Assembly (NCBI GenBank): GCA_025800285.1
Contig: JAOXRX010000062.1
Location: 2,346-66,345 of the forward strand
Direction of reading: 5' to 3'
DNA length: 64,000 bases
From: Alphaproteobacteria bacterium
Lineage (GTDB): Bacteria > Pseudomonadota > Alphaproteobacteria > JAOXRX01
How positions within the stretch are numbered: the stretch's first letter is position 1; the number at the start of each line of letters is the position of its first letter. The notes under the pieces were generated by a model that saw only the letters and a list, made by a program, of their open reading frames with translations, made no database searches and was not told the DNA's origin. The translations under genes were made by a program, and so were the position numbers. Of the stretch, positions 14,161-64,000 are shown piece by piece.

Positions 14161-14161
14161 A

Positions 14162-19406: not shown

Positions 19407-19431
19407 GCTCGTAAAATAACAAGGTATAAAA

Positions 19432-20121: not shown

Positions 20122-20131
20122 ACTAAAAAAC

Positions 20132-20160: not shown

Positions 20161-20274
20161 ATAAGCTCTTCTTTTTAGAAGAACTGGTTAGTTTAGGATT
20201 ATGCCCGTAGTCGGGGTCTTAACGGCCTATTACCGCTCCGAAAACAGGAGCAAAAAAAGGAAATCATAAAAATT

Positions 20275-21969
20275 ATGACAAAAAAAGAAACAGAAGAATT
20301 CATACTAAACGAAAGCTTCGAAGATTTATTAAACGAAACTATCGGTAAAGATACAAAATTTGAAGGATCAGTTGTTAAAGGAACTATCATTGAACTAGAT
20401 AGCGACTTCGCTACAATTGATGTTGGACTGAAATCAGAAGGTAAAGTGCCTCTGAAAGAATTCAATGCTTCAGCTAAAGACCTAACTGTTGGAGATCAAG
20501 TAGATGTTTACATCGAAAGAGTTGAAAGCAAAAATGGTTCTGCTGTTCTTAGCCGTGAAAAAGCTGTTAGAGAAGAAGCTTGGGTTGAACTAGAAAAACT
20601 TTACAACAATGGTGAACATGTTGTTGGAACAATCTTCAATAAAATCCGTGGTGGTTTTGCTGTTGATGTTATGGGAACAGTTGCATTCTTGCCAGGTTCT
20701 CAAATTGATGTAAGACCTATCAAAGATGCTACTCCACTAATGAACAACCCTCAACCATTCGCAATCGTGAAAATGGACAAACAAAGAGGAAATATTGTTG
20801 TTTCTAGAAGAGCTATCTTAGAAGAAAACCAAGAAGAAACAAGAGCTGAACTACTTTCAAAAATGGAAGAAGGTCAAGTTGTTAAAGGTATCGTTAAAAA
20901 CATCACAGATTATGGTGCATTTATCGATCTTGGTGGTATTGATGGACTACTTCATGTAACTGATATCTCATGGAGCAGAATCAATCACCCTTCAGAAGCT
21001 TTACAAATCGGTCAAACTATTGATGTAAAAATCACTAAGTTTAATAAAGAAACTAACAGAATATCTTTGGGAATGAAACAATTAGAAGAAAACCCATGGA
21101 TTGATGTTTCAAAAAGATATAAAGTTGGACAAGTTGTAAAAGGTAAAGTTACAAACATTACTGATTACGGTGCATTCATAGAACTTGAAAAAGGTCTTGA
21201 AGGTCTAACTCATGTTTCTGAAATTTCTTGGACAAAGAAAAATATCAACCCTGCTAAAGTAGTATCTACTTCTCAAGAAGTTGATGCTATGATCCTAGAA
21301 GTTGATGAAGAAAAACAAAGAATTTCTTTAGGACTAAAACAATGTACTCCAAACCCATGGGAAAGCTTCCATAATGAGCACCCTGATGGAGAAGTAATTG
21401 AAGGTCCAGTTAAAAACATCACAGAATTCGGTCTATTCATCGGTTTAAACGAAGAAATTGATGGAATGGTTCATTTATCAGACATATCTTGGGATATCTC
21501 AGGTGAAGAAGCTGTTAAAGAATACAAAAAAGGTGATATCGTTAAAGCTAGAATCTTAGATGTTAATATAGAAAAAGAAAGAATCTCTTTAGGTATTAAA
21601 CAACTTACTGAAGATACTTTCGAATCTTCTCTAAAAGGCATTAAAAAAGGTTCTGCTGTAAAAGGTAAAATCTCTAAAGTATTAGAAGAAGGTGTTGAAG
21701 TTGAAATCAATGAAGAACTTCACGGTTTTGTTAAAGTTACAGATTTAGCTAAAGCTAAAGCTGACCAAGATGTAACAAAATACAACGAAGGTGACGAGAT
21801 TGAAGCTAAAGTTATTTCTATAGACAGAAGCTCAAGACAAGTTACTCTATCAGTTAGAGCTCTTGAAATAGCTGCTGAAAAAGAAGCTATTGCTGAGTAC
21901 ACAAAAAATGAAGAATTTACTTCATCATTTGGTGATATCTTAGACAATGCTCTAAATTCAAAAAAATAA
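20275..21969 (+). CDS. rpsA: 30S ribosomal protein S1.
   Basis: Six S1 RNA-binding repeats, 564 aa. RBS AAGGAAA. Confidence 0.95.
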   Translation: MTKKETEEFILNESFEDLLNETIGKDTKFEGSVVKGTIIELDSDFATIDVGLKSEGKVPLKEFNASAKDLTVGDQVDVYIERVESKNGSAVLSREKAVREEAWVELEKLYNNGEHVVGTIFNKIRGGFAVDVMGTVAFLPGSQIDVRPIKDATPLMNNPQPFAIVKMDKQRGNIVVSRRAILEENQEETRAELLSKMEEGQVVKGIVKNITDYGAFIDLGGIDGLLHVTDISWSRINHPSEALQIGQTIDVKITKFNKETNRISLGMKQLEENPWIDVSKRYKVGQVVKGKVTNITDYGAFIELEKGLEGLTHVSEISWTKKNINPAKVVSTSQEVDAMILEVDEEKQRISLGLKQCTPNPWESFHNEHPDGEVIEGPVKNITEFGLFIGLNEEIDGMVHLSDISWDISGEEAVKEYKKGDIVKARILDVNIEKERISLGIKQLTEDTFESSLKGIKKGSAVKGKISKVLEEGVEVEINEELHGFVKVTDLAKAKADQDVTKYNEGDEIEAKVISIDRSSRQVTLSVRALEIAAEKEAIAEYTKNEEFTSSFGDILDNALNSKK

Positions 21970-47984: not shown

Positions 47985-48980
47985 TTAATCTTCTTTATTA
48001 ACTTTTCTATATCTTTCTTTTCTTAGGTTTCTATTAGAAAGAGAAATGTAACCTGTAGCTTCTCCATTTTCACCTAAAGATTTTAGCTGCTTCCCTTTGT
48101 AAATCAAAGAAACTCCACCAGCATTACCTGCATTTAATATCAAATCTTTTTTATTTGGAACAATAATTTTATCATTTTTATAAAAAGTACCAACAAATAC
48201 ACTTTTTCTTTCATCATTGTCGTAAACATCAATCCATGATGTATCATCTAAAGATATAGTTAGCAGAGAATCTTTAATAAACCTTTGACCATAAACAGAA
48301 GGCTCTTGCATTACTATTTCTTCTATACTTATTTGATGAGGATTAAGCATTGTCTTTTCGACCTCAACAACTTCTTCAACCTCCTCGGGCATTTTTTCAA
48401 CTTCTAAAGAATCTTCCTCAATAAAATCTACTTTGTTATCAATAACAACAGGCATATCATTGGATTCAATAACCTCTTCCTCTGATACAATTGATGAAGT
48501 ATTATACTCCACAACATCTGCGGTTTTATTAAACACTGAAAATAAAATTACTATAAGAGTTATAATTACAGCTAAAACAATTAATCCTAGATTACTAAAA
48601 TCACCATTTTCTTGATGTATAAGTTTTTCATAAACAGGCTTTTTCTTCTTAATTGGCTCTATTTCTTGCCCCATTCTATTAAAGACATGAGCTTTTTTAT
48701 TAGAGAATTGCTCTTTTATTAGCTGCTTAACAACATCATCACCATCTAACCCTAAATAATTTGCATAATTTTTAACAAATCCTGTCATATATGCATCACC
48801 AGGAAATTTAGAGTAATCATCATGCTCAATACCTTCAAGATATTTAACACTTATCTTAAGATCTTCTGAGATTGTTTTTAATTTGATTTTTTGTCTTTTT
48901 CTGGCATCCTGAATAACACAGCCGACAGTAAGGCCTAGTTCTAAAGTTTCTGTAATTTGTCTTTCATGATTATCAGTCAT
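47985..48980 (-). CDS. rodZ: RodZ-like cytoskeleton protein (N-terminal XRE HTH, TM segment, C-terminal DUF4115-like).
   Basis: HTH LKLKTISEDLKISVKYLEGIEHDDYSKFPGDAYMTGFVKNYANYLGL and a TM segment LGLIVLAVIITLIVILFSV. The start is set at MTDNHERQ because the longer ORF runs through tRNA-Leu. Confidence 0.6.
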   Translation of the reverse strand: MTDNHERQITETLELGLTVGCVIQDARKRQKIKLKTISEDLKISVKYLEGIEHDDYSKFPGDAYMTGFVKNYANYLGLDGDDVVKQLIKEQFSNKKAHVFNRMGQEIEPIKKKKPVYEKLIHQENGDFSNLGLIVLAVIITLIVILFSVFNKTADVVEYNTSSIVSEEEVIESNDMPVVIDNKVDFIEEDSLEVEKMPEEVEEVVEVEKTMLNPHQISIEEIVMQEPSVYGQRFIKDSLLTISLDDTSWIDVYDNDERKSVFVGTFYKNDKIIVPNKKDLILNAGNAGGVSLIYKGKQLKSLGENGEATGYISLSNRNLRKERYRKVNKED

Positions 48981-49008
48981 AAGTATCCACCCTTTTAATA
49001 AAAAGAAA

Positions 49009-49094
49009 TGGTGGCCTCGGCCGGACTTGAACCGGCACGTCCAAAGGACACACGATTTTAAGTCGTGGGCGTCTACCAATTCCGCCACGAGGCC
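49009..49094 (-). tRNA. tRNA-Leu (TAA) with a long variable arm.
   Basis: On the reverse complement: GGCCTCG acceptor stem, anticodon loop cuUAAaa, long variable arm, T-arm GGTTCAAGTCC, and CCA. Confidence 0.85.
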
Positions 49095-50456: not shown

Positions 50457-51355
50457 AACTAAAAGCAGGACTAGAAAAATCTACAATCAAATTATCTCAA
50501 AATCTAAAAACAGCCTTTTTATCAAAAAAAGTTGATGAAGAAATGCTGGAAGAATTAGAAGATAGCTTAATAATGTCAGATGTAAGCTTTTCTGTTACAG
50601 AAAAACTTGTGGGAAACTTAGCAAAAATAAAATTTGGCAAAGAAGCAAACGAACAAGAAATAAAAAAGTTCTTAGCAAATGAAATCAAAACTATTCTAGA
50701 ACCTATAGCTAAAGATTTAGAAATAGATGAAAGCAAATCTCCTTTTGTTATACTAATGATTGGGATTAATGGCTCTGGGAAGACTACATCTATAGGAAAA
50801 ATAGCTAATAAACTAAAAGATGAAGGTAAAAAAGTAATGCTAGTAGCCGGAGATACCTTTAGAGCTGCAGCTGTAGAACAACTTGAAGAATGGGGTAAAA
50901 GATCTGATATTCCTGTTATGAAAAAAGAGATTGGCTCTGATGCTGCATCTCTAGTATATGAAGCTTATGAAACAGCAAAAAAAGAATCCACTGATGTATT
51001 AATTATTGATACAGCTGGAAGACTACATAACAATTCCAATTTAATGTCTGAATTAGAAAAAATACAAAGAGTTCTAAGCAAACACAATGAAGAGCTACCC
51101 CATAAAACTTTACTATCAATAGATGCGACCACGGGGCAAAATGCTATTGTGCAAATTGAAGAGTTTAATAAATGTATAAATATAGACGGCATACTGTTAA
51201 ATAAACTAGACGGGACAGCTAAAGGTGGAGTAACAATTACTATCGCTGATAAATTTAAAAACATACCTATAAATTATTTAGGTATTGGTGAGCAAATAGA
51301 TGATTTACAGAGTTTTAATCCTGATGATTTCGCTGAAGATTTATTAGGCTTATAA
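50441..51355 (+). CDS. ftsY: Signal recognition particle receptor FtsY.
   Basis: NG-domain motifs GINGSGKTTSIGK, DTAGR and NKLDGTAKGG. Confidence 0.9.
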   Translation: MFRKLKLKAGLEKSTIKLSQNLKTAFLSKKVDEEMLEELEDSLIMSDVSFSVTEKLVGNLAKIKFGKEANEQEIKKFLANEIKTILEPIAKDLEIDESKSPFVILMIGINGSGKTTSIGKIANKLKDEGKKVMLVAGDTFRAAAVEQLEEWGKRSDIPVMKKEIGSDAASLVYEAYETAKKESTDVLIIDTAGRLHNNSNLMSELEKIQRVLSKHNEELPHKTLLSIDATTGQNAIVQIEEFNKCINIDGILLNKLDGTAKGGVTITIADKFKNIPINYLGIGEQIDDLQSFNPDDFAEDLLGL

Positions 51356-51386
51356 AAAGCAAATACAAACTATTTAATATAAAAAC

Positions 51387-51413
51387 AAATCCCATATTTA
51401 ATTATGGGATTTA
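51387..51413. terminator. Bidirectional terminator hairpin between ftsY (+) and rpmJ (-): aaatcccata/tatgggattt.
   Basis: 10-bp inverted repeat. Confidence 0.5.
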
Positions 51414-51445
51414 TATTTATAAATAAATATTCAATAAAAAAAAGA

Positions 51446-51586
51446 TTATTTTCTTTTCTTAGTTCCTTGTTTAGCTTTATTTCTAGGATTTTTAGGATCA
51501 ATAACGATTAATTGACCTTTTCTTCTAATTAGCTTACAAGTTTTACTTCTTTTCTTTAGAGTTTTTAAAGAGTTTACAACTTTCAT
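51446..51586 (-). CDS. rpmJ: 50S ribosomal protein L36 (alphaproteobacterial bL36 type).
   Basis: 46-aa product [46 protein letters not shown], matching the bL36 pattern. Absent from the ORF track because it is below the cutoff. Confidence 0.8.
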
Positions 51587-51684
51587 TTTTCTAACTTTCT
51601 TTTGGTTTTATTTCAAATAGAGTTAATTTATATACTTTTTTTAAGAATAAGTCAAGAGAAAAGACTAAGTATATAAATAAAAAA

Positions 51685-52058
51685 GTAATGGACGGGCTGT
51701 AAGCCGGGTTCTGTCAAAGATAACTATTCATCTAGATTATACATTACTGCATAATTCTTGCAACCTACCTATCGGTTATAAGGTGTGGGAATACACCTAA
51801 AGAACGAATCTTTTCCCGTTAATTTGGTCTTGCTCCTGATAGGGTTTACCTTGCCTGTAACTATCACTAGCACAGCGGTGAGCTCTTACCTCACCTTTTC
51901 ACCATTACCAACAAAAGCTGGCAGTCTATTCTCTGTGGCACTTTCCCGTAGATTACTCCAGCTGGCCGTTAACCAGTATCATATTCCCATGGAGCCCGGA
52001 CTTTCCTCAAGCACTAGGTTTCCCAATTGTACCCGCAGTTATCACCCATCCATTTAAC
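51685..52058 (-). ncRNA. rnpB: RNase P RNA (bacterial type A).
   Basis: The reverse complement carries the universally conserved blocks GGAAAGTCCGGGCTCCAT, GGTGAAAAGGTGAGGTAAGAGCTCACC, AGGAGCAAGACCAAAT and CTAGATGAATAG...GACAGAACCCGGCTTACAG. Its P1 pairs with the 5' end. The ORF at 51785-52057 is antisense to this RNA. Confidence 0.85.
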
Positions 52059-52151
52059 ATAACTTATAACATATATTAAATTATTAGGCAATAAAAAACC
52101 GCCCTACTTTACAATAGGACGGTTTAATTTACTTAAAAAATAATGCTTAAA

Positions 52152-52655
52152 TTATTTTTTAGCTTCTTCTTTTTCAGTTTTTGCTTTTGGTAATTCAACT
52201 ATTGTTATTTTACCACCAGCTTTTTCAACAGCTTTAACAGCTGCTTCAGAAGCTTTTTGAACTTCTAGTGTTAATTTAGCTTTTAGCTCACCTTTTGCAA
52301 GGATTTTAACACCGCCGTTTTCTAATTTATTGATGATACCAGCTTCTTTAAGAGCTTTAGCATCTAATTTAGCACCGTCTTTTATTTTCTTTCTGTCAAC
52401 AAAGTCTTGTAAAACAGTTAGGTTAACAACAGCATATCTAGTTCTATTGATTGGTGAGAAGCCTCTTTTAGCAAGTCTTCTGAACATATTTGTTTGACCA
52501 CCTTCAAAACCATTTATAGACACACCAGATCTTGATTTTTGACCTTTTTGACCTTTACCAACTGTGTGTCCACCTTTACCAGAACCAATACCTCTACCAA
52601 TTCTAGTTCTGTTTTTTCTAGCACCTTGATTATCTCTTAATTCATTAAGTCTCAT
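52152..52655 (-). CDS. rplO: 50S ribosomal protein L15.
   Basis: The sequence is Gly/Lys-rich and L15-like. It lies downstream of rpmD. Confidence 0.9.
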   Translation of the reverse strand: MRLNELRDNQGARKNRTRIGRGIGSGKGGHTVGKGQKGQKSRSGVSINGFEGGQTNMFRRLAKRGFSPINRTRYAVVNLTVLQDFVDRKKIKDGAKLDAKALKEAGIINKLENGGVKILAKGELKAKLTLEVQKASEAAVKAVEKAGGKITIVELPKAKTEKEEAKK

Positions 52656-52656
52656 G

Positions 52657-52845
52657 TTACTTCTCCTCTACGATAGTTACAAGGTGTTGAACTTTATTGA
52701 TCATACCTCTAACAGATGGAGTATCTTCCAAAGTACTTACACGATGCATTTTGTTAAGTTTTAAACCAATCAAAGTAGCTCTTTGATCTTTAGTTCTACC
52801 AATTGGACTTTTAACTTGTTTAACTGTAATTGTTTTCTTAGCCAT
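52657..52845 (-). CDS. rpmD: 50S ribosomal protein L30.
   Basis: 62 aa, L30-like, in the spc operon position. Confidence 0.85.
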
Positions 52846-52847
52846 TT

Positions 52848-53393
52848 TTATGCCTCACTTTCAGAAGCTTCTTCAGCTTCAACTGCATTATTTTTACCAA
52901 GAACTTCACTTACTTTGATACCTCTTCTAGCAGCAACACTTCTTGGGCTTGACATTCTTTTGAAACCTTCAAAAACAGCTTTAACCATGTTATATGGGTT
53001 TGAGCTACCGTTAGATTTCGCAACAACATCTTGTAGACCTAAAGCTTCGAAAACAGCACGAACAGGACCACCAGCGATGATACCAGTACCTGAAGGAGCA
53101 GATCTCATAAATACTTTACCAGCACCAAAGATACCCATTGTATCATGATGTAAAGTTCTACCTTCTCTTAGAGGAACTCTAACCATTGCTTTTTTAGCAT
53201 TTTCTGTAGCTTTTTGGATTGCTGGAGCAACTTCTCTTGCTTTACCAGAACCGTATCCAACTCTACCTTTACCGTCACCAACAACAACTAAAGCAGCGAA
53301 AGACATATTTCTACCACCTTTAACAGTTTTAGCAACACGGTTAATGCTTACTAATTTTTCAATTACTTCTGTATTTTTTTCATTTCTAGCCAT
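52848..53393 (-). CDS. rpsE: 30S ribosomal protein S5.
   Basis: S5 dsRBD and C-terminal domain motifs ([23 protein letters not shown]). Confidence 0.95.
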
Positions 53394-53404
53394 CTTTATG
53401 CTCC

Positions 53405-53761
53405 TTAAAATTTTAAGCCAGCTTCACGAGCAGCGTCTGCAAGAGCTTTAACTCTTCCATGGAATAATAGTCCGCTACGATCGAAAACTACTTCTGAGAT
53501 TTTAGCTTTAACAGCTCTTTCAGCAACTAATTTACCAACAGCTTCTGCTGCCATTTTGTTACCACCATTTTTCAAATTTAACTCTTTTTCTAGAGATGAA
53601 GCTGAAACTAAAGTTTTACCAGCAACATCATCAATGATTTGAGCATAAATGTGCTTAGATGAACGATTAACAGATAGTCTTACTTTACCTTTAGAAACTT
53701 TCTTAAGGTTAGCTCTAGATCTATCTTTTCTTCTTTGTCTTCTATCTTGTATTTTAATCAT
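53405..53761 (-). CDS. rplR: 50S ribosomal protein L18.
   Basis: 118 aa, L18-like ([18 protein letters not shown]). Confidence 0.9.
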
Positions 53762-53932
53762 ATTAAAATCTTTCTTAAATTTAAATTAAACAATAAAAAA
53801 ACCATCCTATTTATTAATAGAATAGCGATTTAATGTCGTGATTTATGAGGAACAAATCTTCCTCGGGATTTTCAAACATTATTTTTATAACATTACTTTT
53901 AAAAAAATGCAAGCTTTTTATTTATACGAAAG

Positions 53933-54799
53933 CTAAAATATTAACAGTGCAATACCCGACAATATTATAGCCGCAGAAAGAGCTCTAATCTTATTGAATT
54001 TGTTTTTAATAAACATATACTCCAACATAAATATAACAACCAACTCTATACTACCAATACCCGCAACCTTACCTATTGGTAAAAACTTATATGAATACAT
54101 TTGAAGAACAACAGCTATAGTTAGCAAGAATCCCGTAAAAACCAATGGAATTGCATGTTTTTTAGATAGATTTAATATTTTTCTTACATTTTTATGCCTA
54201 ACTTTATAAAAAAACATAAAGAATAAAAACATTATAAAATAAATACTCCAAATAAATGATATAACTGACCCTTCTAATATAGCTTTCTTTGATACAACTC
54301 CAATTAAACTACTTAGTATCATAATTAACACAACAAGCAACCAACCAGATCTTCTAAAATGAAATCTTGATATTCTCTTAACTCTGCTTAATTCTAACAA
54401 TACAGTTCCCGAAACAACAACAAACATACCTAATACATTTAATAAAGAAAAAGTCTCTTTAAGAAAAAGAACTCCCATCAATGCCATCAATAATGGAGTA
54501 GATGCATTTAAAACTGTAATGTAAGATATATCAAACTTTTTTAAAGCCCTGTAATAAAGCAAAGTTTTAGATATATTCAATATAGATAATAAAAAAACAT
54601 AGAACAAGAATAGCCCATTAGATAAATAATGAACTTGATTAAAAAACAAAAGAGGTATTGTCAAAAATAACAAAGGAACCAAGTTTCTATACAATCCCAT
54701 CAAAACATAATCTATTTTTAACTTAGATATAATTCTTTTATCATTTACCTTTTGGAAAGCATAAACGAAACCCATTAAAACTGCTAATAAATAAGACAT
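53933..54799 (-). CDS. EamA/DMT-family permease with ten predicted TM helices.
   Basis: Two EamA-like halves with hydrophobic periodicity. Inserted inside the spc ribosomal operon. Confidence 0.7.
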   Translation of the reverse strand: MSYLLAVLMGFVYAFQKVNDKRIISKLKIDYVLMGLYRNLVPLLFLTIPLLFFNQVHYLSNGLFLFYVFLLSILNISKTLLYYRALKKFDISYITVLNASTPLLMALMGVLFLKETFSLLNVLGMFVVVSGTVLLELSRVKRISRFHFRRSGWLLVVLIMILSSLIGVVSKKAILEGSVISFIWSIYFIMFLFFMFFYKVRHKNVRKILNLSKKHAIPLVFTGFLLTIAVVLQMYSYKFLPIGKVAGIGSIELVVIFMLEYMFIKNKFNKIRALSAAIILSGIALLIF

Positions 54800-54825
54800 C
54801 TAAACTCTTTTCTTTAAATCTAAAA

Positions 54826-55896
54826 TTACAATGATATATAATGCTTCTCTTCTAATATAGAATTACACATTTCCCTATCTATTTCCCCTGATATATTTTG
54901 TTGAAAAATAAATTTAAAATCTTTGTAACTAACATTTTGCCCCAACATCCACATACACTTTGAGCACACACACTCTGGGCTCATATCAAAAGCTTCAATT
55001 ATATTTAAATTCATATTCTTTTGCTCTAATATTTTATACTCTGTATAAGACGTAGTTCCTTCTTTACAAGCACTAGCAACAATAACAGGAATTTCTCTTC
55101 TTCTCAAATTTTCTAAAGTATTAACAAAATTATTTGGCAATATTCCAGTTCCTAAAACCATAAATATAACCGCTTTTAATCTATCATCAGATAATTCTTT
55201 TAAAAATTCAATATCCATATCTGGAGTTAAAGATAAACATAAAACACTGTCATCAAACCCCTTTTTAAAATCTGGAGCTATATCATGCCTTACATACCTA
55301 TCATCGTTTCTTTTTGAAGATAATGATGAGAATATATTATTTGTTACAGCAAAGTCATCTTTATTAAAACTAGAAAAAGAATCCAAACTGATTCTAGAAG
55401 TTCTAGTTGCCCTAGTCCCTAATATTATTTTACTCCCGAACACAACAAAAACTCCCGATAGATTTGTTATAGCAACACAAAGTGAATTAATTAAATTAAT
55501 TTTAGCATCTGTTTTAATCTCATATATTGAATTTCTTGCTCCAGTTAATATAATAGGCTTACCTAAGTTCTGAATAACAAATGAAAGAGCTGAAGATAAA
55601 TACCCCATAGTATCTGCCCCTGTTGTAATGACAAAACCATCATATTCATTATATTTTTCTTCAATAATATTAATTATTTTATTCCACTTATCAAGTGTTA
55701 CATTATGAGAAAAACCTTGAGAAACGACTTCTACATCCATAGAAGCTATATGATCAATACCTGGAACATGATTCATTATATCTTTTGCTACATCATTATC
55801 TTCAATCCTACTATCTAAGACAGGACTATCATCAACAGATGGCTTCATTGTTATCACACCACCACAAACCAGAACTAAAACTTTTTTATTAAACAA
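54826..55896 (-). CDS. L-asparaginase/glutaminase family protein (type I-like) with a substituted nucleophile motif.
   Basis: N-terminal VLVLVCGGVITM where AnsA has AYTGGTIGM, and TTGADTMGY where AnsA has HGTDTM. The fold is recognisable but the first catalytic Thr appears replaced by Val. Confidence 0.65.
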   Translation of the reverse strand: MFNKKVLVLVCGGVITMKPSVDDSPVLDSRIEDNDVAKDIMNHVPGIDHIASMDVEVVSQGFSHNVTLDKWNKIINIIEEKYNEYDGFVITTGADTMGYLSSALSFVIQNLGKPIILTGARNSIYEIKTDAKINLINSLCVAITNLSGVFVVFGSKIILGTRATRTSRISLDSFSSFNKDDFAVTNNIFSSLSSKRNDDRYVRHDIAPDFKKGFDDSVLCLSLTPDMDIEFLKELSDDRLKAVIFMVLGTGILPNNFVNTLENLRRREIPVIVASACKEGTTSYTEYKILEQKNMNLNIIEAFDMSPECVCSKCMWMLGQNVSYKDFKFIFQQNISGEIDREMCNSILEEKHYISL

Positions 55897-55992
55897 TTTA
55901 ATCCTCCTGTTTTTTTAAATTATACTTATACAAAATAAATAATTTTGCAAGAAAAAATTATTTTTTATAAAATAAAATGATTAAATAAATAT

Positions 55993-56364
55993 TTAAGATT
56001 TAGAAAAATATATAACTCTGCTACTATCTTTTTTTCTTTTGATGAAAATGCCTTTTTTTCTAAGAGATGACTCTCTGAACTTATCATCTGCATTTTTTAT
56101 GAATTTATCAAATTTTGCTTTATTAGTTGAGGTGTTAGCATTACCAGAAACACCCATTTCTCTAAAGTAAAATTTAACACCACTAGCTATAATAGATTTA
56201 AAATATTTAAAGTCTTTATGAGACATCGATCTACTATGATTATCAAAATGCTCTTCAACAGAGAATCTATCTTCTGACATTTTTATAGTGCTATTTCTCA
56301 GTTTAAAAGTTACATTTTGAATCTGATTATCATAAATTTGAACATGTATAGTTTTATTTTGCAT
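55993..56364 (-). CDS. Hypothetical protein, 123 aa.
   Basis: ORF only. It is the first gene of the cassette inserted between rplF and rplR. Confidence 0.4.
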   Translation of the reverse strand: MQNKTIHVQIYDNQIQNVTFKLRNSTIKMSEDRFSVEEHFDNHSRSMSHKDFKYFKSIIASGVKFYFREMGVSGNANTSTNKAKFDKFIKNADDKFRESSLRKKGIFIKRKKDSSRVIYFSKS

Positions 56365-56534
56365 TTTTACCTCTTATATAACTAATATTAAAAAGCTATA
56401 ATATCATAAAAAAGAGCTTTTTTCAACAAAAGATATGTCATTTAGCATAAAAAATGCAGAAATTAATTTTAGCATCAAACATATGATTTATGATATAAAA
56501 AAACATCCATTAACAGGGATACTCCCTTAAATAT

Positions 56535-56725
56535 AAAAAATATATTTATCTGAATTTTAGATTTGATTTCAACGACCGCGGTGTAAAATAAATTAACCAT
56601 AAAAAAATCCCAACATAATGTCGGGATTTAGTTCTTTGGAAAGAAATATATTTATATAAATTTCAGATTTTGTTTCAATGGCCGTGGTGTAGAATACACT
56701 ACATGAGTTAGCCATTGAAACAAAA
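56535..56725. repeat. Palindromic repeat module. A full element lies at 56640-56725, with a 15-bp perfect stem ttttgtttcaatggc/gccattgaaacaaaa. A truncated half copy lies at 56535-56600. A minus-strand terminator hairpin (aaatccc/gggattt plus T7) sits between them at 56605-56639.
   Basis: About 80% identity over roughly 50 nt between the copies. The hairpin followed by a T-run reads as a terminator for the minus-strand rplF transcript. Confidence 0.6.
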
Positions 56726-56743
56726 AAATAAAATCTATAAAAA

Positions 56744-57274
56744 CTATTTCTTTTTACCTTCTTTTCTGATAATAACTTCATCAGAGTATTTAACACCTTT
56801 ACCTTTATAAGGCTCTGGTTTTCTCCATGCTCTGATATCAGCTGCTACTTGACCAACTTTTTGTTTGTCAGCACCAGATATTACTAATACAGTTGGTTTT
56901 TCAGCTTTAGCTTCAACACCTTCTGGTAACTCATAGTTAACATCATGTGAGAAACCTAAGTTTAGTTTTACAACTCTACCTTGAACTTGAGCTTTATAAC
57001 CAACACCATTGATTTCTAATGTTTTTGAAAAACCTTTTGAAACACCTTCAACAAGATTATTAATTAAAGCTCTTGTTGTTGCCCACATTGGAGTAGGCTT
57101 TGCTTCATTTGCTGGTTTTACAACGATTTCATTTTCGTTTTTCTCAACAACAGCATCAGCATGTATAGGCATTGATAATTGACCTAATTTCCCTTTAACA
57201 GAGATTTCGTTATCAGCAATAGTAACTTCTACACCTTCTGGAATAGCTACAGGACGATTTCCAATTCTTGACAT
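56744..57274 (-). CDS. rplF: 50S ribosomal protein L6.
   Basis: 176 aa, L6-like. Confidence 0.95.
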   Translation of the reverse strand: MSRIGNRPVAIPEGVEVTIADNEISVKGKLGQLSMPIHADAVVEKNENEIVVKPANEAKPTPMWATTRALINNLVEGVSKGFSKTLEINGVGYKAQVQGRVVKLNLGFSHDVNYELPEGVEAKAEKPTVLVISGADKQKVGQVAADIRAWRKPEPYKGKGVKYSDEVIIRKEGKKK

Positions 57275-57288
57275 AATCTTCTACCCTC

Positions 57289-57687
57289 CTAAAATACTTT
57301 TGCTAGAACTTCGCCACCTAAGTGAGCTGCTCTTGCATTGTGGTCACTCATAACACCTTTTGGTGTTGATACGATACAGATACCAAGTCCGTTATAGTAT
57401 TTTGGTAAATCTTTAATTTTTGAGTAAACTCTTCTTGAAGGTTTTGAAACTCTGTGAAGTTCTTTAATAGCACCTTCATCATCAAAGTATTTTAATACTA
57501 CTGAGATTTCATCGAAACCTTTATCATTTTTAGCTACTGAATAATCAGAGATATAACCTTCTTCTTTTAACACTGCTAAAACAGACAGTCTTAGTTTTGA
57601 AGATGGACTTGTAATTGTTTTTAACTTAGCTTGCTGGCCGTTTCTAATACGAGCTAGCATATCGCCTAATGGATCTATAATTGCCAT
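57289..57687 (-). CDS. rpsH: 30S ribosomal protein S8.
   Basis: 132 aa, S8-like. Confidence 0.95.
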   Translation of the reverse strand: MAIIDPLGDMLARIRNGQQAKLKTITSPSSKLRLSVLAVLKEEGYISDYSVAKNDKGFDEISVVLKYFDDEGAIKELHRVSKPSRRVYSKIKDLPKYYNGLGICIVSTPKGVMSDHNARAAHLGGEVLAKVF

Positions 57688-57705
57688 AATTTTGTGCTCC
57701 TTTCC

Positions 57706-58008
57706 TTACCAGCTTGATTTCTTAACACCTGGAAGTAAACCAAGTGAAGCTAATTTTCTTAAACATATACGACACATGCCGAATTTTCTGTAAACAGAAT
57801 GAGGTCTACCGCATATACGACATCTTCTTTGATATCTAATTGGATTTCCATCTTTTGGAAGATTATTTAATTCTTGACAAGCTGCGAATACTTCAGCTGG
57901 ATCACCAGATCTTTTAATTTTAGATTTGATTCTTGATCTTTTAGCTTGTTGCTTAAGAATTTTAACACCTCTTTTTTTATTTTTATCAGCCATACTTACT
58001 TTTGACAT
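57706..58008 (-). CDS. rpsN: 30S ribosomal protein S14 (long, 100-aa form).
   Basis: C-terminal [22 protein letters not shown]. Confidence 0.9.
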
Positions 58009-58017
58009 AGCTACCTC

Positions 58018-58560
58018 CTAATTTTTAAATGGAAGCTTGAACTTTGATAACAAAGCTTTTGCTTCTTCATTTGTTTTTGCAGTTGTACAAATCACAACGT
58101 TTAAACCACGGATTTGATCAACTTTATCAAAATCGATTTCTGGGAAAATTATTTGCTCTTTGATACCCATAGAGTAATTACCTCTACCATCAAAAGCTTT
58201 TCCTGAAATACCACGGAAGTCTCTAACTCTTGGTAAAGAGATAGTAACTAGTCTATCTAAGAAATCATACATTCTGTCTTTTCTTAGAGTAACTTTAGCA
58301 CCGATTGGCATACCTTCTCTAAGTTTGAACTGAGCTATAGATTTTTTAGCTTTAGTAACAACAGCTTTTTGACCAGCAATTAAAGTTAGCTCATCAGCAG
58401 CATTTTGCACTTTTTTCTTATCATTAATTCCTTCACCAACACCCATGTTTAACACGATTTTAGTGATTTTTGGAATTTCCATAACATTTTTATAACCAAA
58501 TTCTTCTTGAAGTTCTTTAGCTATTTTATCGTTATATAATTCTTTTAATCTTGATGTCAT
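58018..58560 (-). CDS. rplE: 50S ribosomal protein L5.
   Basis: 180 aa, L5-like. Confidence 0.95.
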
Positions 58561-58572
58561 TTGCTATTCTCC

Positions 58573-58887
58573 TTAATCAATAACTTCGCCAGATTTTTTT
58601 GCAAATCTCACTTTTTTACCATCTTTAAGAACTTTAAATCCAACTCTTGTTGGTTTTTTAGTTTTTGGATCGATAATAGCAACATTTGAAACATCAATAG
58701 CCATTTCTTTTTCAACGATTCCACCAGCAGACATTGGAGATGGTTTTACATGTTTTTTCACCATGTTTACACCAGCAACAATAACTTTGTTATCTTTTGG
58801 TAGAGACTTAACAACTTCGCCTGTTTTTCCTTTATCTTTACCAGATAAAACAATAACATTATCACCTTTTTTAATTTTAGAAGCCAT
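58573..58887 (-). CDS. rplX: 50S ribosomal protein L24.
   Basis: KOW motif [21 protein letters not shown]. Confidence 0.95.
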
Positions 58888-58888
58888 A

Positions 58889-59263
58889 TTATAGCACCTC
58901 CGAAGCTAGTGAAACGATTTTCATCATACCAGGAACTTCTCTCATTTCTCTTGGGATAGGTCCAAAGATACGAGTACCAATCATTTCTTTTGAGTTTTTA
59001 TTAAGAATAACAGCTGCATTATTATCAAACTTGATAGTTGAGCCATCTTTTCTTTTAATTTCTTTTGTAGTTCTAACTACAACAGCCATAACTACATCAC
59101 CTTTACTTACTTTACCGTTTGGAGCAGCTTCTTTAACAGATGCCATAATGATATCGCCCACACGAGCATATCTTCTATGAGATCCACCTAAAACTTTAAT
59201 GCACTGCACTCGTTTTGCGCCTGAGTTATCAGCAACGGTCAAGTTGGTTTGCATTTGAATCAT
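58889..59263 (-). CDS. rplN: 50S ribosomal protein L14.
   Basis: [28 protein letters not shown]. Confidence 0.95.
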
Positions 59264-59767
59264 ATTTTTATTTCCTAATCATTATTAAATGCACGAATAA
59301 ATGCAGACAGAAAAAAGAAATATTTTGTCAAGCAGTCAAATACCTATATGTATGTGACACTTGCCAAAACTTTTTTTGTATACATTTCTCGCACATTTTC
59401 TAACGATTAACCATGCAAAAATTGCAAACAAAATTCTTTTCAGCGAACACATTTTTAAACTAGTCTCTAATAACAATTAACCTTTCTTAGTTAGTTTTAA
59501 AAATATTTATAGATTATCTTAGAGTAATTCTAAAAAAATCTAACTTGTTGCCATTTTAAGGTTGACAAAACCTTTATTTTTTTCAAAAAAAGAATCTTAA
59601 GAAAAACCAGCTACAACTTAAATTGCACGATGTTAATCTTATTATTCTTTTATTATCAATGACTTAAGTAAGATGAAAACCTCACAAAAACCATCTATTT
59701 GATTAAAGAAAATATACTATATTTTAGATTAAAAGTCAAGAGAAATACAAAATTATATTTAGAGCGC

Positions 59768-60445
59768 CTAAGGATATATATTAGAAGAAATAGAGCTTTT
59801 TGAAGTTACAAGTAAATGATCTTTTGAATACTTTGATATATATTTTAATGCTAATTTTACTACATCAGAATCACTATCTTTTAACTTTTGCTTTACAGCT
59901 AAAAAAACTCTTTCATCATTTATCTCTGATGATAAAGATTTTAATGCAGACTCTCTAACAAAAAAATCATCATCATTTAAACTATTCAAAAGAGCTTCTT
60001 TAATATTTTTTCTATGAGATACAGGAGATAAAGCTTGTACTATATTTCTTCTTACATCTGCATAAGAGAATTCATCCCCTAATTCTTGCAGTAAACATTT
60101 TTGGACATTTTCATTATTTACATTATAAGAAAGAGATTTTATTGCAGCTCTCCTTATAAGAAAATCATCATGCCCTGCATTATACTTAATTTTATCAAAG
60201 ATTTCTTTTTCACAACTCACTGGCGATAAAGCTATTAAAGCACACTCAAGCATATGAGAAGAAGATGTTTCATCAACAATCTTAATAAGAGCATCTCTAA
60301 TCTCTCTATTATCTTTAACAAATAAAGATAATTCAGCAAATAACTCGTTTCTTTTTTCAGGAAAAAATATAGGATTTATGCTTTTTAACCTCTGCAGAAG
60401 GTGCTTGTGTTTATTTTTATCATTTTTCAATACTCTCTCCTCCAT
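59768..60445 (-). CDS. HEAT-repeat (PBS-lyase-type) protein, about 225 aa.
   Basis: Repeated helical pairs of the pattern ...R..AI.AL... The start is set at MEERV, which has RBS AAGGAGA; the longer ORF extends to 60496. Confidence 0.55.
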   Translation of the reverse strand: MEERVLKNDKNKHKHLLQRLKSINPIFFPEKRNELFAELSLFVKDNREIRDALIKIVDETSSSHMLECALIALSPVSCEKEIFDKIKYNAGHDDFLIRRAAIKSLSYNVNNENVQKCLLQELGDEFSYADVRRNIVQALSPVSHRKNIKEALLNSLNDDDFFVRESALKSLSSEINDERVFLAVKQKLKDSDSDVVKLALKYISKYSKDHLLVTSKSSISSNIYP

Positions 60446-60516
60446 AAAAATCTCCTTAATAAACATTATAATAACATAAAAGAATAAAATTTTCAAATGT
60501 CTAATATTAAAGCATT

Positions 60517-61467
60517 CTAAGCCTTATTAAGCAAAGCAGAGTGAAGCATTAAGTTAACCAAGTTTCTTTTATTTATTCCAAAAGATTTAGACTGACATGG
60601 TAAATCACTAGTATTTGTCATCCCAGGCAATGTATTAACTTCTAATACATAAAACCTACCCTCTTCTGTAAGTATAAAATCAACTCTTGAAAATCCCGAG
60701 CAGCTTAACTCTTTAAAAGCTTTTACAGCTATACTCTTTATTTCATTACTTATAAAGCTATCTATATTTGCTGGAGATGTATGTATTAAAGCTCCTTCTG
60801 TATATTTATTATTATAATCATAATTACCATTTTTAACTTCAACCTCTAATATATCAGTTGCAAAAATATGATTATTTAACTGCAAAACACCTACAGTTAA
60901 CTCTCTACCAATTAATAACTCTTCTATTATAGGCTTAGAATTGCAATTCTCCACCTCTTTTAATATAGTTTGCAATTCTTGTTTATTATTAGCTACACCA
61001 GAAGCAAGGCTTGAGCCCTGATCTATAGGCTTACAAAAAACAGGATAATTTATCTGACTAGAGTCAGAATATGACTTAGGAACTAAAACACCTGCTTTAT
61101 TTAAATGTTTTTTAGTCTTCTCTTTATTCATACATAAAGAACTAGCTAATACTCCTGAGCCTGTGTAAGGAATTCCAATATTTTCTAGAATTGATTGAAT
61201 ATAACCATCTTCACCATATGTTCCGTGTAATGCAAGAAAAGCTATATCTATTTCAAAGCATTTGAGTTCACTTTTATAATCACCTTTTAAATCAACTATA
61301 AAAGAATTATAATACCCTAAACCTTTAAGAGCCTCATAACAATTCTCACCACTTTTAAGAGAAACTTTTCTTTCTCTTGATTTTCCACCACATATTACCG
61401 CTATTTTTGCATTTTTACTTATATCATTTAAATTATTTATAACATTTAAAAGTAATTCTTTTTCCAT
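60517..61467 (-). CDS. ddl: D-alanine--D-alanine ligase.
   Basis: ATP-grasp Ddl motifs (HGTYGEDG, NTLPGMT), 316 aa. RBS AAGGAGA. Confidence 0.85.
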   Translation of the reverse strand: MEKELLLNVINNLNDISKNAKIAVICGGKSRERKVSLKSGENCYEALKGLGYYNSFIVDLKGDYKSELKCFEIDIAFLALHGTYGEDGYIQSILENIGIPYTGSGVLASSLCMNKEKTKKHLNKAGVLVPKSYSDSSQINYPVFCKPIDQGSSLASGVANNKQELQTILKEVENCNSKPIIEELLIGRELTVGVLQLNNHIFATDILEVEVKNGNYDYNNKYTEGALIHTSPANIDSFISNEIKSIAVKAFKELSCSGFSRVDFILTEEGRFYVLEVNTLPGMTNTSDLPCQSKSFGINKRNLVNLMLHSALLNKA

Positions 61468-61605
61468 ATAAAATCTCCTTAATAAATATTAATAACATTA
61501 TATTAATAACTTTTTTAAATTCAATAATAAAAAAATAAATAAATTATTTATTGTCGCGGAGATGTATTAACTTCATAATAAAAAATTATATAGACTAAAT
61601 ATAAA

Positions 61606-61640
61606 AAAAGCCCCGCTATCGCTGAGGCTTTTATTATTTG
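61606..61640 (-). terminator. Possible terminator downstream of rpsQ. On the minus strand it reads hairpin aagcc..ggctt followed by T7.
   Basis: Short stem with flanking A- and T-runs. Confidence 0.3.
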
Positions 61641-61776
61641 TAATATCTAAAAAAAGTTTCTAACTTAATTTATTAAGTAATTTTTAAATTGATTTAGACT
61701 GTGAAGCGAGCCCTTGCCTATACATTAAAGTATTGCTATGAGGGTAAGCTTCACAAAAATAAATCAAGAATAAAAA

Positions 61777-62004
61777 CTATTTAATAACTTTAAACTTTTT
61801 CTTTTTAGAAATTGGAGCACATTCTTCAATTCTAACAACATCTCCCACTTTACATGAATTATCTTCATCGTGAGCAGAATATTTTTTAGATTTCTTAACG
61901 AACTTCTTGTATAAAGGATGCATAACTTGTCTAGTTACTAGAACTGTTACTGTTTTATCAGCTTTGTCTGATACAACTTCTCCTTGTAGTATTCTTTTAG
62001 GCAT
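61777..62004 (-). CDS. rpsQ: 30S ribosomal protein S17.
   Basis: 75 aa, S17-like ([18 protein letters not shown]). Confidence 0.95.
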
Positions 62005-62198
62005 TATTTTTCACCTTTCTTTTCTGATAATACTGTTTTGATTTTTGCTACAGTTTTTTTAACTTCGCTCATTCTAGCAGTATTTTCAAGTTGGCCACTA
62101 GCTTTTTGGAATCTAAGATTGAAAAGTTCTTTTTTCAAAGAAACGATTTCCGCTTTTAATTCATCGATGCTTTTAGCTCTAATATCTGTAATTTTCAT
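62004..62198 (-). CDS. rpmC: 50S ribosomal protein L29.
   Basis: 64 aa, L29-like. Confidence 0.9.
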
Positions 62199-62213
62199 TT
62201 TTAAATTCCCTTT

Positions 62214-62624
62214 CTAGTGGTTTCTAGTTATGAATTTAGTGTTAACAGGAAGTTTAGCAGAAGCTAAAGCAAAAGCTTCTCTTGCGATTTCTTCTTCAAC
62301 ACCGTCTAATTCAAACATAACTCTTCCAGGTTTAACTCTAGCTACCCAATGATCTACAGAACCCTTACCTTTACCTTGTCTAACCTCTAAAGGTTTTTTA
62401 GTCACAGGAACATCTGGGAAGATTCTAATCCATAATCTACCTTTTCTTTTCATGTGTCTAGTAATAGCTCTTCTAGCAGCCTCGATTTGTCTTGAAGTAA
62501 TTCTCTCAGGAGAAAGTGCTTTAAGACCATAAGCCCCAAAGTTCAGAGTAGTTCCACCTTTAGCGTTACCATGAATTCTACCTTTATGAGCTTTTTTAAA
62601 TTTAGTTCTTTTTGGTTGTAACAT
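62214..62624 (-). CDS. rplP: 50S ribosomal protein L16.
   Basis: [16 protein letters not shown]. Confidence 0.95.
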
Positions 62625-62633
62625 TTACTTCTC

Positions 62634-63314
62634 CTATCTTACTTTGCTATTTTTCATAGCACGATTGTCTCTAGCTTGAGGGTTATGTTCCATAACTTCA
62701 CCTTTGAAAACCCAAACTTTAACACCGATGATACCGTATGTTGTTAAAGCTTCTGAGAAACCATAGTCAATATCAGCTCTTAGAGTAGCTAGAGGAACTC
62801 TACCTTCTCTGTACCATTCTGTTCTAGCAATCTCAGCACCGCCAAGTCTACCTGCACAGTTAATTCTGATACCACCAACACCTAACCTCATCGCTGACTG
62901 TTGAGCTCTTTTCATAGCTCTTCTGAAAGAAACTCTTCTTTCAAGTTGGTTAGCAATTGTTTCAGATATAAGTTGAGCATCTGTTTCTGGTTTTCTGATT
63001 TCGATAATGTTTAGAGCTACAGGAGTTCCAAATTTCTTAACGATTTTCTTTTTAAGAGTTTCGATATCTGCACCTTTTTTACCGATAATAATACCAGGTC
63101 TTGAAGTGTGGATATTTACTTTAACTTTATCAGCTGCTCTTTCGATTACAACTCTAGAAACACCAGCTTGCTTAAGTTCTTTTTTGATAAATTTTCTTAG
63201 CTCTAAGTCTTGGTGAATTTTATCTGCATAGTCTTCTTTACCTGCATACCAAAGACTTTCCCAAGTTCTGTTGATACCAAGTCTAAGACCGATTGGATTT
63301 ACTTTTTGTCCCAT
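62634..63314 (-). CDS. rpsC: 30S ribosomal protein S3.
   Basis: [18 protein letters not shown]. Confidence 0.95.
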
Positions 63315-63691
63315 TATTTTTTCTCCTCAACTTCTTTCACAACAATAGTAAGATTACTGAATGGTTTCAAAATTCTAGCACCACGACCTTTAGCTCTTGC
63401 TCTAAATCTTTTCATAACGATAGATTTACCAACGAAAGCTTCGCTCACGATTAATTTATCAACATTTAAGTTGTGATTGTTTTCCGCATTAGCAATAGCT
63501 GAGTTTAAAACAGCTTTTACTTCATTTGCAACTCTTCTTTTACAGAAGTCAAGAGCTCTTAAAGCTTCAGCGACATTTTTACCTCTAATTAAAGCTGCTA
63601 CTAAGTTCATTTTTCTTGGGCTAGTTCTAATGTGTTTAGCAAAAGCTCTAGCTTCATTTTTCTCTACTCTTGGAGCATTTGTTTTCGCCAT
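63314..63691 (-). CDS. rplV: 50S ribosomal protein L22.
   Basis: 125 aa, L22-like. Confidence 0.9.
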
Positions 63692-63693
63692 AA

Positions 63694-63972
63694 CTAACCT
63701 CTTTTCGCTTTCTTGTCTGCACCGTGACCATAGTATGTTCTAGTCGGAGCAAATTCACCAAACTTATGTCCAATCATATCTTCAGTCACTAGAACAGGAA
63801 TAAATTTCTGCCCGTTATGAACACCGAATGTTAGACCAACGAATTGTGGTAAGATTGTAGATCTTCTAGACCATGTTTTAATAACATCACTTCTTCCAGA
63901 TTCTCTAACTTTCTCAGCCTTTTTAAGTAAGTAGCCATCAAAGAAAGGCCCTTTCCATATAGATCTTGTCAT
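63694..63972 (-). CDS. rpsS: 30S ribosomal protein S19.
   Basis: [18 protein letters not shown]. Confidence 0.95.
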
Positions 63973-64000
63973 AATAAAATACCTTTCTATTTAGTTCTTC

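Follow-up and report, generated by a model that had tools for sequence, protein, structure and literature searches.

The S10-spc-alpha cluster of ribosomal protein genes is the textbook example of a gene order resistant to rearrangement. In an uncultured alphaproteobacterium, represented here by a 64-kb stretch of contig JAOXRX010000062.1 (the window), the cluster is cut into three blocks. Two gaps between the blocks, one of 2.5 kb and the other of 3.0 kb, are filled with non-ribosomal cargo genes, and secY does not follow rplO, the last gene of the third block. The breakpoints are shared with related lineages, and the cargo differs between strains whose flanking DNA is 99% identical. The arrangement probably represents a lineage-specific restructuring of the cluster in which the gaps serve as slots for small, strain-variable islets of accessory genes.

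Organization of the cluster

All genes of the cluster lie on the minus strand. They follow each other in the order rpsS-rplV-rpsC-rplP-rpmC-rpsQ, then ddl and a gene for a HEAT-repeat protein, then rplN-rplX-rplE-rpsN-rpsH-rplF, then the genes for a small protein (hyp123), an asparaginase-like protein and an EamA-family transporter, and then rplR-rpsE-rpmD-rplO. The RNA gene rnpB and rpmJ complete the series and are met by the convergent ftsY. The three ribosomal blocks and the genes at their borders are as follows.

61777-63972, minus strand: distal S10-operon block, rpsS, rplV, rpsC, rplP, rpmC, rpsQ (open reading frames (ORFs), S17 Pfam match, tblastn)
63972-63694, minus strand: rpsS
62004-61777, minus strand: rpsQ
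56744-59263, minus strand: middle block, rplN, rplX, rplE, rpsN, rpsH, rplF (ORFs, Pfam, tblastn)
59263-58889, minus strand: rplN
57274-56744, minus strand: rplF
52152-53761, minus strand: distal spc block, rplR, rpsE, rpmD, rplO (NCBIfam equivalogs, each above its cut-off)
53761-53405, minus strand: rplR
52655-52152, minus strand: rplO

The canonical order is kept inside each block, and the spacers within blocks are 3-36 nucleotides (nt) long. Matches to Pfam and NCBIfam models identify S17, L14, L6, L18, S5, L30, L15, L36, Ddl, the HEAT_2 protein, the Asparaginase N+C protein and the EamA protein; S19, L22, S3, L16, L29, L24, L5, S14 and S8 were recognised by tblastn with reference operons. 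Upstream of rpsS, beyond the window edge, rplB, rplW and rplD were read from Logan contig L001.

Gap 1 (slot 1) extends from the rpsQ stop at 61777 to the rplN start at 59263, and gap 2 (slot 2) from the rplF stop at 56744 to the rplR start at 53761. Both bear genes, and all of these genes are oriented like the ribosomal ones.

60517-61467, minus strand: ddl, D-alanine--D-alanine ligase, 316 amino acids (aa) (NF002378, TIGR01205, Pfam)
59768-60445, minus strand: HEAT-repeat protein, 225 aa from the ATG at 60445, a hypervariable allele (Pfam HEAT_2, E=3.7e-12)
55993-56364, minus strand: hyp123, small protein with a rare domain, also present in the same slot of the related contig L170
54826-55896, minus strand: asparaginase-fold protein with non-canonical motifs (Pfam Asparaginase N+C)
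53933-54799, minus strand: EamA-family transporter, which forms a conserved pair with the asparaginase-like gene (Pfam EamA)

The third break lies after rplO, where secY and the alpha operon would directly follow in the canonical cluster. Within the 64-kb window secY, adk, rpsM, rpsK, rpoA and rplQ are not detectable by tblastn. Instead, rplO is succeeded by the following two genes.

51684-52053, minus strand: rnpB, RNase P RNA class A (Rfam RF00010, 275.7 bits, cut-off 100)
51446-51586, minus strand: rpmJ, L36 probably of type B, rpmJ2-like (Pfam L36, NCBIfam)

A first-pass annotation of this DNA had described the same gene order, its three breaks, the co-orientation of the inserts and the lack of secY after rplO. 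All of its gene calls were reproduced, and the order and breaks were confirmed by ORFs, Pfam, NCBIfam, tblastn and Rfam. Its apparent use of rpmJ as a stand-in for the missing tail of the operon is not supported. The rnpB gene is full length (model positions 1-367), and rpmJ adjoins rnpB, not secY. The best NCBIfam model of rpmJ is the type B model NF002021, with 59.6 bits, below the cut-off of 70; TIGR01022 scores 28.1, above its cut-off of 22.7. Proteobacterial genes of the rpmJ2 type are normally located outside spc (PMC8046335). Relatives have priA after rplO, and the rnpB-rpmJ pair is therefore probably a later, window-specific juxtaposition rather than a remnant of the spc tail.

Relatives that share the breaks

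Close relatives were obtained by a search for homologous proteins and then through the contigs that encode them. In a collection of 5.8 billion proteins the metagenomic relatives form a small set, with L6 76-88% and L14 81-98% identical to the window. On L6 they form a clade with 100% bootstrap, and members of the clade are at most 58% identical to other Alphaproteobacteria over S14+S8+L6. The clade is AT-rich, with about 30% GC, and uncultured.

Three contigs of up to 558 kb from three Joint Genome Institute (JGI) samples, L085, L086 and L087, belong to one species with L6 80% identical, and are cut at the same three places as the window. Between S17 and L14, L085 carries a 722-aa PKD/DUF285 gene on the opposite strand, and L086 and L087 carry a tandem-repeat helical protein. 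Between L6 and L18 there is a hypothetical protein of 191 or 272 aa, and L15 is followed by priA on the opposite strand. The lineage of P0122 and L088 (88%) has a SEC-C-motif protein after L6, and L173 (L14 93%) has panD upstream of rplN, on the opposite strand. One or both of the S17|L14 and L6|L18 sites are hence occupied in the window, in L170, in L085-L087, in the L088/P0122 lineage and in L173. The L6|L18 junction is intact in L089, L174 and L175 (L6 84, 82 and 77%), in which rplF and rplR are 7-9 nt apart.

Two observations concern genes at the breaks of L085-L087. The slot-1 gene of L086 (5967-7482) consists of 183-195-nt tandem repeats with an N run, a scaffold gap, inside it, and its two ORFs of 128 and 294 aa are probably parts of one longer repeat protein. 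The priA gene beside rplO has a DUF559/MTES_1575 endonuclease-like domain inserted in L085 (13510-16110, 866 aa) and in L086 (13588-16212, 874 aa), and is free of this domain in L087 (6486-8636, 716 aa). The domain could be a mobile one that targets conserved genes.

Turnover of the two slots between strains

The most informative relatives are L170, a JGI contig that is also deposited as a second NCBI metagenome-assembled genome (MAG), and the independently assembled L171 and L172. In all ribosomal genes and in the non-coding DNA that frames the slots, their identity to the window is 98.9-99.4%. Comparison of the window with L170, in which the blocks are 99% identical up to the boundaries, delimits the exchanged part of the first gap.

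59746-61636, no strand: slot 1, strain-variable segment with terminator, ddl and HEAT allele

The segment starts at the hairpin of the rpsQ terminator, the sequence of which differs in each strain, and ends exactly at the -35 box of the predicted rplN promoter. L170 has in its place a 740-nt replacement segment with another terminator and a divergent HEAT allele, and ddl is absent from slot 1 of L170, L171 and L172. The HEAT proteins of the window and of L170 are collinear and 39-42% identical despite the 99% flanks. In slot 2, L170 retains hyp123 at 99% and possesses an additional 221-aa gene with two repeats paralogous to hyp123. The asparaginase-EamA cassette is represented in L170 by an 83-nt internal fragment of the asparaginase gene (87%) and the last ~85 nt of the EamA gene (97%). 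From these decayed remnants it follows that the cassette was once present and was later deleted in that strain; the deletion junctions have short microhomology. A second pair of strains repeats the pattern, since L085 and L086 have flanks that are ~98.6% identical and slot-1 cargo that is unrelated. The two gaps thus resemble flexible genomic islands in their shared position across related genomes and in a gene content that varies between strains with near-identical flanks. Between the window and L170, single-nucleotide polymorphisms (SNPs) cluster near the slots, which fits recombination.

The first-pass annotation had stated that the same gene order in close relatives, as an ancestral feature with secY elsewhere, would reduce the novelty of the locus. 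The breaks are indeed a lineage feature common to relatives, and by that standard the novelty is lower. The cargo is not ancestral, as it differs between strains with 99%-identical flanks, and this strain-level turnover adds something to the original observation.

The same data bear on the possibility of neutral scrambling, in which the breaks would be scars fixed under strong drift in a host-restricted bacterium and the differences in cargo would be ordinary insertions and deletions. Interruption of other conserved pairs in the window (gatA/gatB; cmk/rpsA) is in keeping with it, as are the direct joining of rplC to rplN in the clade member L176 and the succession of fusA and rpsJ without tuf in L086. 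Against it, cargo of different kinds occupies the same two sites in several species and strains, within surroundings of 10 kb that have remained 99% identical. Ordinary vertical divergence cannot yield HEAT alleles with 39% identity between flanks with 99% identity, and the conserved promoter and leader blocks described below indicate selection on the split units. Neutral scrambling is, on balance, a rather unlikely account of the locus.

Terminators, promoters and leaders

The borders of the blocks carry a set of predicted transcription signals.

61603-61632, minus strand: predicted intrinsic terminator after rpsQ, AAAAGCCUCAGCGAUAGCGGGGCUUUUUUU (sequence and fold)
59578-59745, minus strand: conserved predicted promoter and two-hairpin leader, ~475-310 nt upstream of rplN (conservation, folds)
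56535-56753, minus strand: junction elements after rplF, namely a long hairpin, a predicted terminator and direct repeats (repeat, terminator and fold scans)
53762-53912, minus strand: conserved predicted promoter and leader directly upstream of rplR (conservation, folds)
52096-52125, minus strand: predicted intrinsic terminator after rplO, 13-bp stem and U-run (scan and fold)
51385-51414, no strand: predicted bidirectional terminator between rpmJ and the convergent ftsY (terminator scan)

The stem of the rpsQ terminator has a 1-nt bulge and was hence missed by a consensus scan. At the same place L170 has a different hairpin with a U-run, and L086 a strong predicted terminator. The palindrome and terminator that the first-pass annotation had noted after rplF are real. 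The palindrome (56753-56640) has 43-nt arms at 56753-56711 and 56682-56640 and a fold z=-7.35, and the intrinsic terminator, at 56629-56605 with a U-run, lies just 3' of rplF. L085, L087 and L088 each have a hairpin at the corresponding place, built from other stem sequences. The same junction of the window also contains a pair of 61-nt direct repeats (56701-56641 and 56595-56535). The strong terminator predicted after rplO, which has a homologous counterpart in the same context in L086, is predicted to be the end of the truncated spc operon.

The predicted rplN promoter is TTGACT-17-TATATT at 59739-59711, with TATATT or TATCTT depending on the lineage. The block of promoter and leader is 78% identical over 169 nt to that of L085, L086 and L087 despite different upstream cargo, and 5 of the 38 predicted pairs show compensatory changes. 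Between this leader and rplN (59336-59500, minus strand) there is a conserved motif, AAGAAAGG-N7-TTG, followed by a short ORF of 46 codons in the window and 18 codons in L085 and L087, which may encode a leader peptide. The predicted rplR promoter is TTGCAT-17-TATAAA with a TGn element at 53912-53884. The leader that follows is predicted to form hairpin 1 at 53864-53847 and, ~40 nt before the start codon, a second, terminator-like hairpin with U7 at 53826-53794; the whole block of promoter and leader is 79% identical over 140 nt to that of L085, L086 and L087. The stem of hairpin 1 is GAGGAA/UUCCUC in the window and GAGAGA/UCUCUC in the L085-L087 lineage. The cargo genes ddl, HEAT and hyp123 each have their own promoter-like site, that of ddl being TTGAAT-16-TATAAT at 61524-61497, but such sites are at chance level in this AT-rich DNA and count for little. 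An Rfam E-value scan of 51000-64000 gave only noise, with no known leader or small RNA family in the junctions.

The first-pass annotation had suggested that the inserted genes ride on ribosomal-operon transcription. In its full form this explanation holds that the cargo was recruited into the super-operon and is co-transcribed with it, so that ribosome synthesis would be coupled to the cell wall (ddl) and to transport or metabolism. The uniform orientation of cargo and ribosomal genes is what this would predict, and intrinsic terminators are rarely 100% efficient; furthermore, with a terminator-like hairpin between EamA and rplR, some read-through would be needed for rplR if the upstream promoter were unused. 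The predicted terminators with hairpin and U-run directly after rpsQ and rplF, together with that after rplO, point the other way, as do the conserved sigma-70-type promoters and structured leaders before rplN and rplR, which are present whatever the upstream cargo is. The slot-1 genes of L085 and L173 run opposite to the ribosomal genes. Cargo that is dispensable and variable between strains is also a poor fit to a fixed regulatory coupling. Co-transcription as the basis of the arrangement is therefore unlikely.

Borders of the inserts and assembly of the contig

The GC content at third codon positions (GC3) of the cargo is 0.155-0.232, inside the native range of 0.12-0.27, and on this ground the cargo was judged not to be foreign. 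Searches with Pfam, NCBIfam and other domain scans found no transposase, integrase or recombinase domain in any cargo protein, and a repeat search found no bracketing repeats, terminal inverted repeats or target duplications at either insert. The 61-nt repeat occurs nowhere else in the window and on one side of slot 2 only; as a dispersed element it was rejected because of this single location.

These results bear on delivery by an insertion sequence (IS), a transposon, an integron-like or another site-specific element that targets the junctions. What speaks for such delivery is the palindrome with the two 61-nt repeats at the rplF junction, right after the second of which the extra gene of L170 is inserted, and the occurrence of a DUF559 endonuclease-like gene between gatA and gatB and of the DUF559 domain in priA of L085 and L086. 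Set against the missing enzymes and border repeats, the single location of the 61-nt repeat and the native composition, these hints leave delivery by a mobile element very unlikely.

Chimeric joins at the three junctions, conceivable because the source is a MAG, are refuted by the identical gene order in a separate Logan assembly of run SRR15960039 (which may or may not be the read source of the MAG), by the same breakpoints in contigs of 500-558 kb from other samples, by the alternative slot arrangement reproduced in the three assemblies L170, L171 and L172, and by the conserved non-coding framework at the junctions, and the assembly artefact that would, according to the first-pass annotation, invalidate the finding is thereby excluded.

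Rarity of the breaks outside the clade

The breaks were sought in ~160 alphaproteobacterial loci fetched around L6 (among the matches listed), in which 16 ribosomal genes were located by tblastn. A break was defined as more than 400 nt between neighbours, and secY was counted as present when it was within 2.5 kb of L15. The L6 scans of genome and metagenome contigs yielded only distant relatives of at most 62% identity among the matches listed, and were used as the outside-clade baseline only. Outside the clade an insert between S17 and L14 was found in 0/110 loci (widest spacing 332 nt) and one between L6 and L18 in 0/153 loci (widest spacing 93 nt). The secY gene was missing after L15 in 0/96 loci, all 96 having it within 2.5 kb. 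Among all surveyed loci, secY was lacking only from the contig of the window itself and from three relatives in the clade. The rarity claimed for the three breaks is hence borne out.

Inserts at other junctions of the cluster are not rare in Alphaproteobacteria. Outside the clade the L16|L29 junction is broken in 6 of 106 loci, with a SUKH immunity protein and an ion channel as inserts in Rhodobacterales-type loci, and the L30|L15 junction in 17 of 108, with acyltransferase-3 genes or an HxlR regulator in Sphingomonadales-type loci. Examples of the Rhodobacterales- and Sphingomonadales-type inserts at these two junctions are L015 4540-7497 and 11780-13672, and L078 about 11950-14540, with a SUKH-1 immunity protein, an ion channel, an HxlR regulator and two acyltransferase-3 genes as cargo.

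A study of 204 genomes of Gammaproteobacteria and Bacilli counted 115 rearrangements of the wider cluster, 65% of which only separated whole operons; the spc-alpha pair was separated in none of these genomes, and secY was outside spc in one species only (PMC8046335). Events of this kind are thus known; what is uncommon is where they occur here, and most of all that rplO has lost secY and the alpha operon behind it.

Properties of the cargo proteins

Ddl passes the curated cut-offs of NF002378 (293.8 bits, cut-off 243) and TIGR01205 (251.4, cut-off 245.65) and contains both Dala_Dala_lig_N and Dala_Dala_lig_C of Pfam, as expected of a member of the family. For the HEAT protein, homology to the tandem-repeat protein of L086 was rejected (hhalign probability 0.04, BLASTP E=0.17). 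A role of the cargo in a defence system found no support, as PADLOC gave only a generic HEAT-ARM match of 27 bits.

The hyp123 protein matches no Pfam or NCBIfam family, and among 1.84 billion sequences its relatives amount to 7 cluster representatives with E<=1e-3. Its AlphaFold model has a mean predicted local distance difference test score (pLDDT) of 56. Proteins of 860-1250 aa (P0363, P0364, P0367) contain the domain in 5-11 tandem copies, and there is a sub-threshold Pfam match to the Legionella effector VipE (E=0.012). No significant similarity was found to the 191- and 272-aa slot-2 proteins of L085-L087, the only matches being weak ones obtained without composition correction.

The asparaginase-fold protein belongs to the Pfam fold family and has relatives in the PDB. 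It falls short of a type I L-asparaginase, for which the curated hidden Markov model and the catalytic threonines would be required. Its TIGR00519 score is 186.9, below the cut-off of 260.5, and in the alignment CGGV replaces TGGT and TGADT replaces HGTDT, both in the window and in its two closest homologues. It probably does not act as a canonical asparaginase. In a large family of proteins with this fold (P0002-P0066), the nucleophilic Thr is replaced by Cys (FCGGTISM); in the subgroup of the window the second catalytic Thr is lost as well (TGADT), and this subgroup is consistently paired with an EamA transporter. The two genes form a conserved module that is found at non-ribosomal loci in the closest homologues, L082 (61% identity; neighbours HMGL-like and pntAB) and L083 (54% identity; neighbour pheS).

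Host lineage and other interrupted gene pairs

The first-pass annotation had placed the locus in the context of reduced endosymbionts, with Rickettsiales and Holosporales as the related genomes. Nothing supports this context. The closest L6 sequences outside the clade, among the matches listed, are 60-62% identical and of the Rhodospirillales/Azospirillaceae type, and in the GTDB species representatives the closest are 60% identical and come from Rhodospirillales- and Sphingomonadales-type loci. The window encodes pyruvate kinase, phosphofructokinase, enzymes of glycogen metabolism, MutS, KpsF and an ADP-forming acyl-CoA synthetase-type protein, and glycosyltransferases related to lipopolysaccharide (LPS) were read in the flank from the Logan contig.

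Another normally contiguous operon of the same genome is interrupted at 11293-15637. Between gatA (15637-14162) and gatB (12744-11293), both on the minus strand, there are two accessory genes, for a Pol-beta-type nucleotidyltransferase (14160-13438) and a DUF559 endonuclease-like protein (13211-12810). The genes cmk and rpsA are usually neighbours; on the plus strand at 18759-21969 a phage-lysozyme-family gene (19432-20121) lies between cmk (18759-19406) and rpsA (20275-21969). ORFs of 201, 152 and 265 aa with a GC content of 22-24% and no Pfam family are found among housekeeping genes (9181-10751 and 16102-16899), and may be further small accessory islets. In the RodZ-like gene (47985-49094) the longest ORF, from a GTG at 49088, overlaps tRNA-Leu(taa) at 49009-49094. 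Its true start is therefore further downstream; the gene has 331 aa in the Logan gene call.

Ribosomal gene order is also altered elsewhere in the clade. In L176 (6-821), a deeper member with L14 81%, the C-terminus of ribosomal protein L3 has an acidic tail, rplN begins 3 nt later, and the nine genes from rplD to rpsQ are absent between rplC and rplN. In L086 (1-683) the str-S10 junction likewise departs from the usual one, as fusA, the gene of elongation factor G (EF-G), is directly followed by rpsJ (S10) and tuf is missing from between the two.

Interpretation

The locus is probably best described as the product of lineage-specific restructuring of the S10-spc cluster in this uncultured, ~30% GC alphaproteobacterial clade, with strain-variable islets in the gaps. 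According to this reading, the cluster was cut into three blocks, ending in rpsQ, running from rplN to rplF, and running from rplR to rplO, and the secY/alpha-operon part was moved away from rplO. Each block would most likely be a transcription unit of its own, with the predicted terminators ending blocks 1-3 and the conserved promoters and leaders starting blocks 2 and 3, and the cargo between the blocks would be expressed independently. The two gaps would act as fixed permissive slots for small, fast-turnover islets of accessory genes. The turnover would most likely proceed by homologous recombination anchored in the conserved flanking ribosomal genes, together with local deletions at microhomologies.

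Several observations weigh against this picture. The predicted terminators may leak, in which case read-through co-transcription is possible. Promoter-like matches are at the chance level in AT-rich DNA (67 found, 57.9 expected), and the promoter argument therefore depends only on conservation in two diverged lineages; the covariation in the leaders, likewise, comes from two distinct sequence types only. The clustering of SNPs near the slots fits weaker constraint on non-coding DNA equally well. The move of secY is presumed from its absence in the 64-kb window. Finally, in the L6 tree the lineages with an intact junction (L089, L174, L175) are scattered among those with a broken one, at a support of only 31-78%. 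The history of the breaks could be that of one origin with a poorly resolved tree, of spread by recombination, or of reversal.

A more far-reaching version of the restructuring reading is conceivable but can be put forward only tentatively. It supposes that the ribosomal genes, as the most conserved DNA of the genome, are recombination anchors for miniature hypervariable islets inside the S10-spc cluster, and that cassettes, the divergent HEAT alleles included, are swapped between strains and perhaps species. Such swapping would explain the patchy distribution of intact and broken junctions. The lineage would have evolved new promoters and structured leader RNAs before rplN and rplR to tolerate the split, that of rplR with an attenuator-like terminator, and these leaders would be undescribed regulatory elements of ribosomal proteins.

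Parts of the arrangement have parallels. In the ribosomal operons of Gammaproteobacteria and Bacilli, concatenated operons can be separated by multigene insertions, which is also the situation at the S10|spc boundary of the window; rpmJ and secY are examples of single genes that occasionally lie outside spc, and L36 of the rpmJ2 type is encoded outside the cluster (PMC8046335). Unlike in those genomes, spc is here cut internally at rplF|rplR and truncated after rplO, and the inserts are strain-variable; the clade is moreover alphaproteobacterial, and thus outside the coverage of those studies. The other Alphaproteobacteria of the present survey also have non-ribosomal accessory genes inside S10/spc at lineage-specific sites. 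Their junctions are different ones, however; two inserts and the loss of secY are combined here in one cluster, and strain-level turnover is documented for this clade only.

An analogue in behaviour, like flexible genomic islands in general, is HVR2 of SAR11, a hypervariable region bounded by the 23S and 5S rRNA genes and containing ~50-80 genes (Grote et al. 2012, PMC3448164). It too is a variable set of genes at a fixed position between highly conserved genes of the translation apparatus, it splits a usual operon, and its content differs between close strains. In contrast to HVR2, the islets described here have 1-3 genes and are bounded by ribosomal protein genes, not RNA genes. Islands of this type are operationally defined by a low recruitment of metagenomic reads.

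The conserved structured regions directly upstream of rplN and rplR, one of them with a terminator-like hairpin, resemble autoregulatory leader RNAs, although regulation by them is putative. The S8 site in the E. coli spc mRNA, which Fu et al. are said to have treated in 2013, is reportedly an autoregulatory leader RNA of a ribosomal protein. Unlike known leader RNAs, those of the present clade match no Rfam family and are conserved in two diverged lineages only.

The clade differs from these parallels in three respects: spc is cut internally, secY and the alpha operon are detached, and islets of 1-3 genes vary between strains that are 99% identical. The finding, of modest practical value, mainly refines the limits of ribosomal gene-order conservation. 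The clade offers a ready-made natural test of the constraints that have been proposed to hold the cluster together, namely operon concatenation, translational coupling and stoichiometric co-expression. Should the conserved leaders prove to be regulatory, they would illustrate how a cell rebuilds control after an operon has been split.

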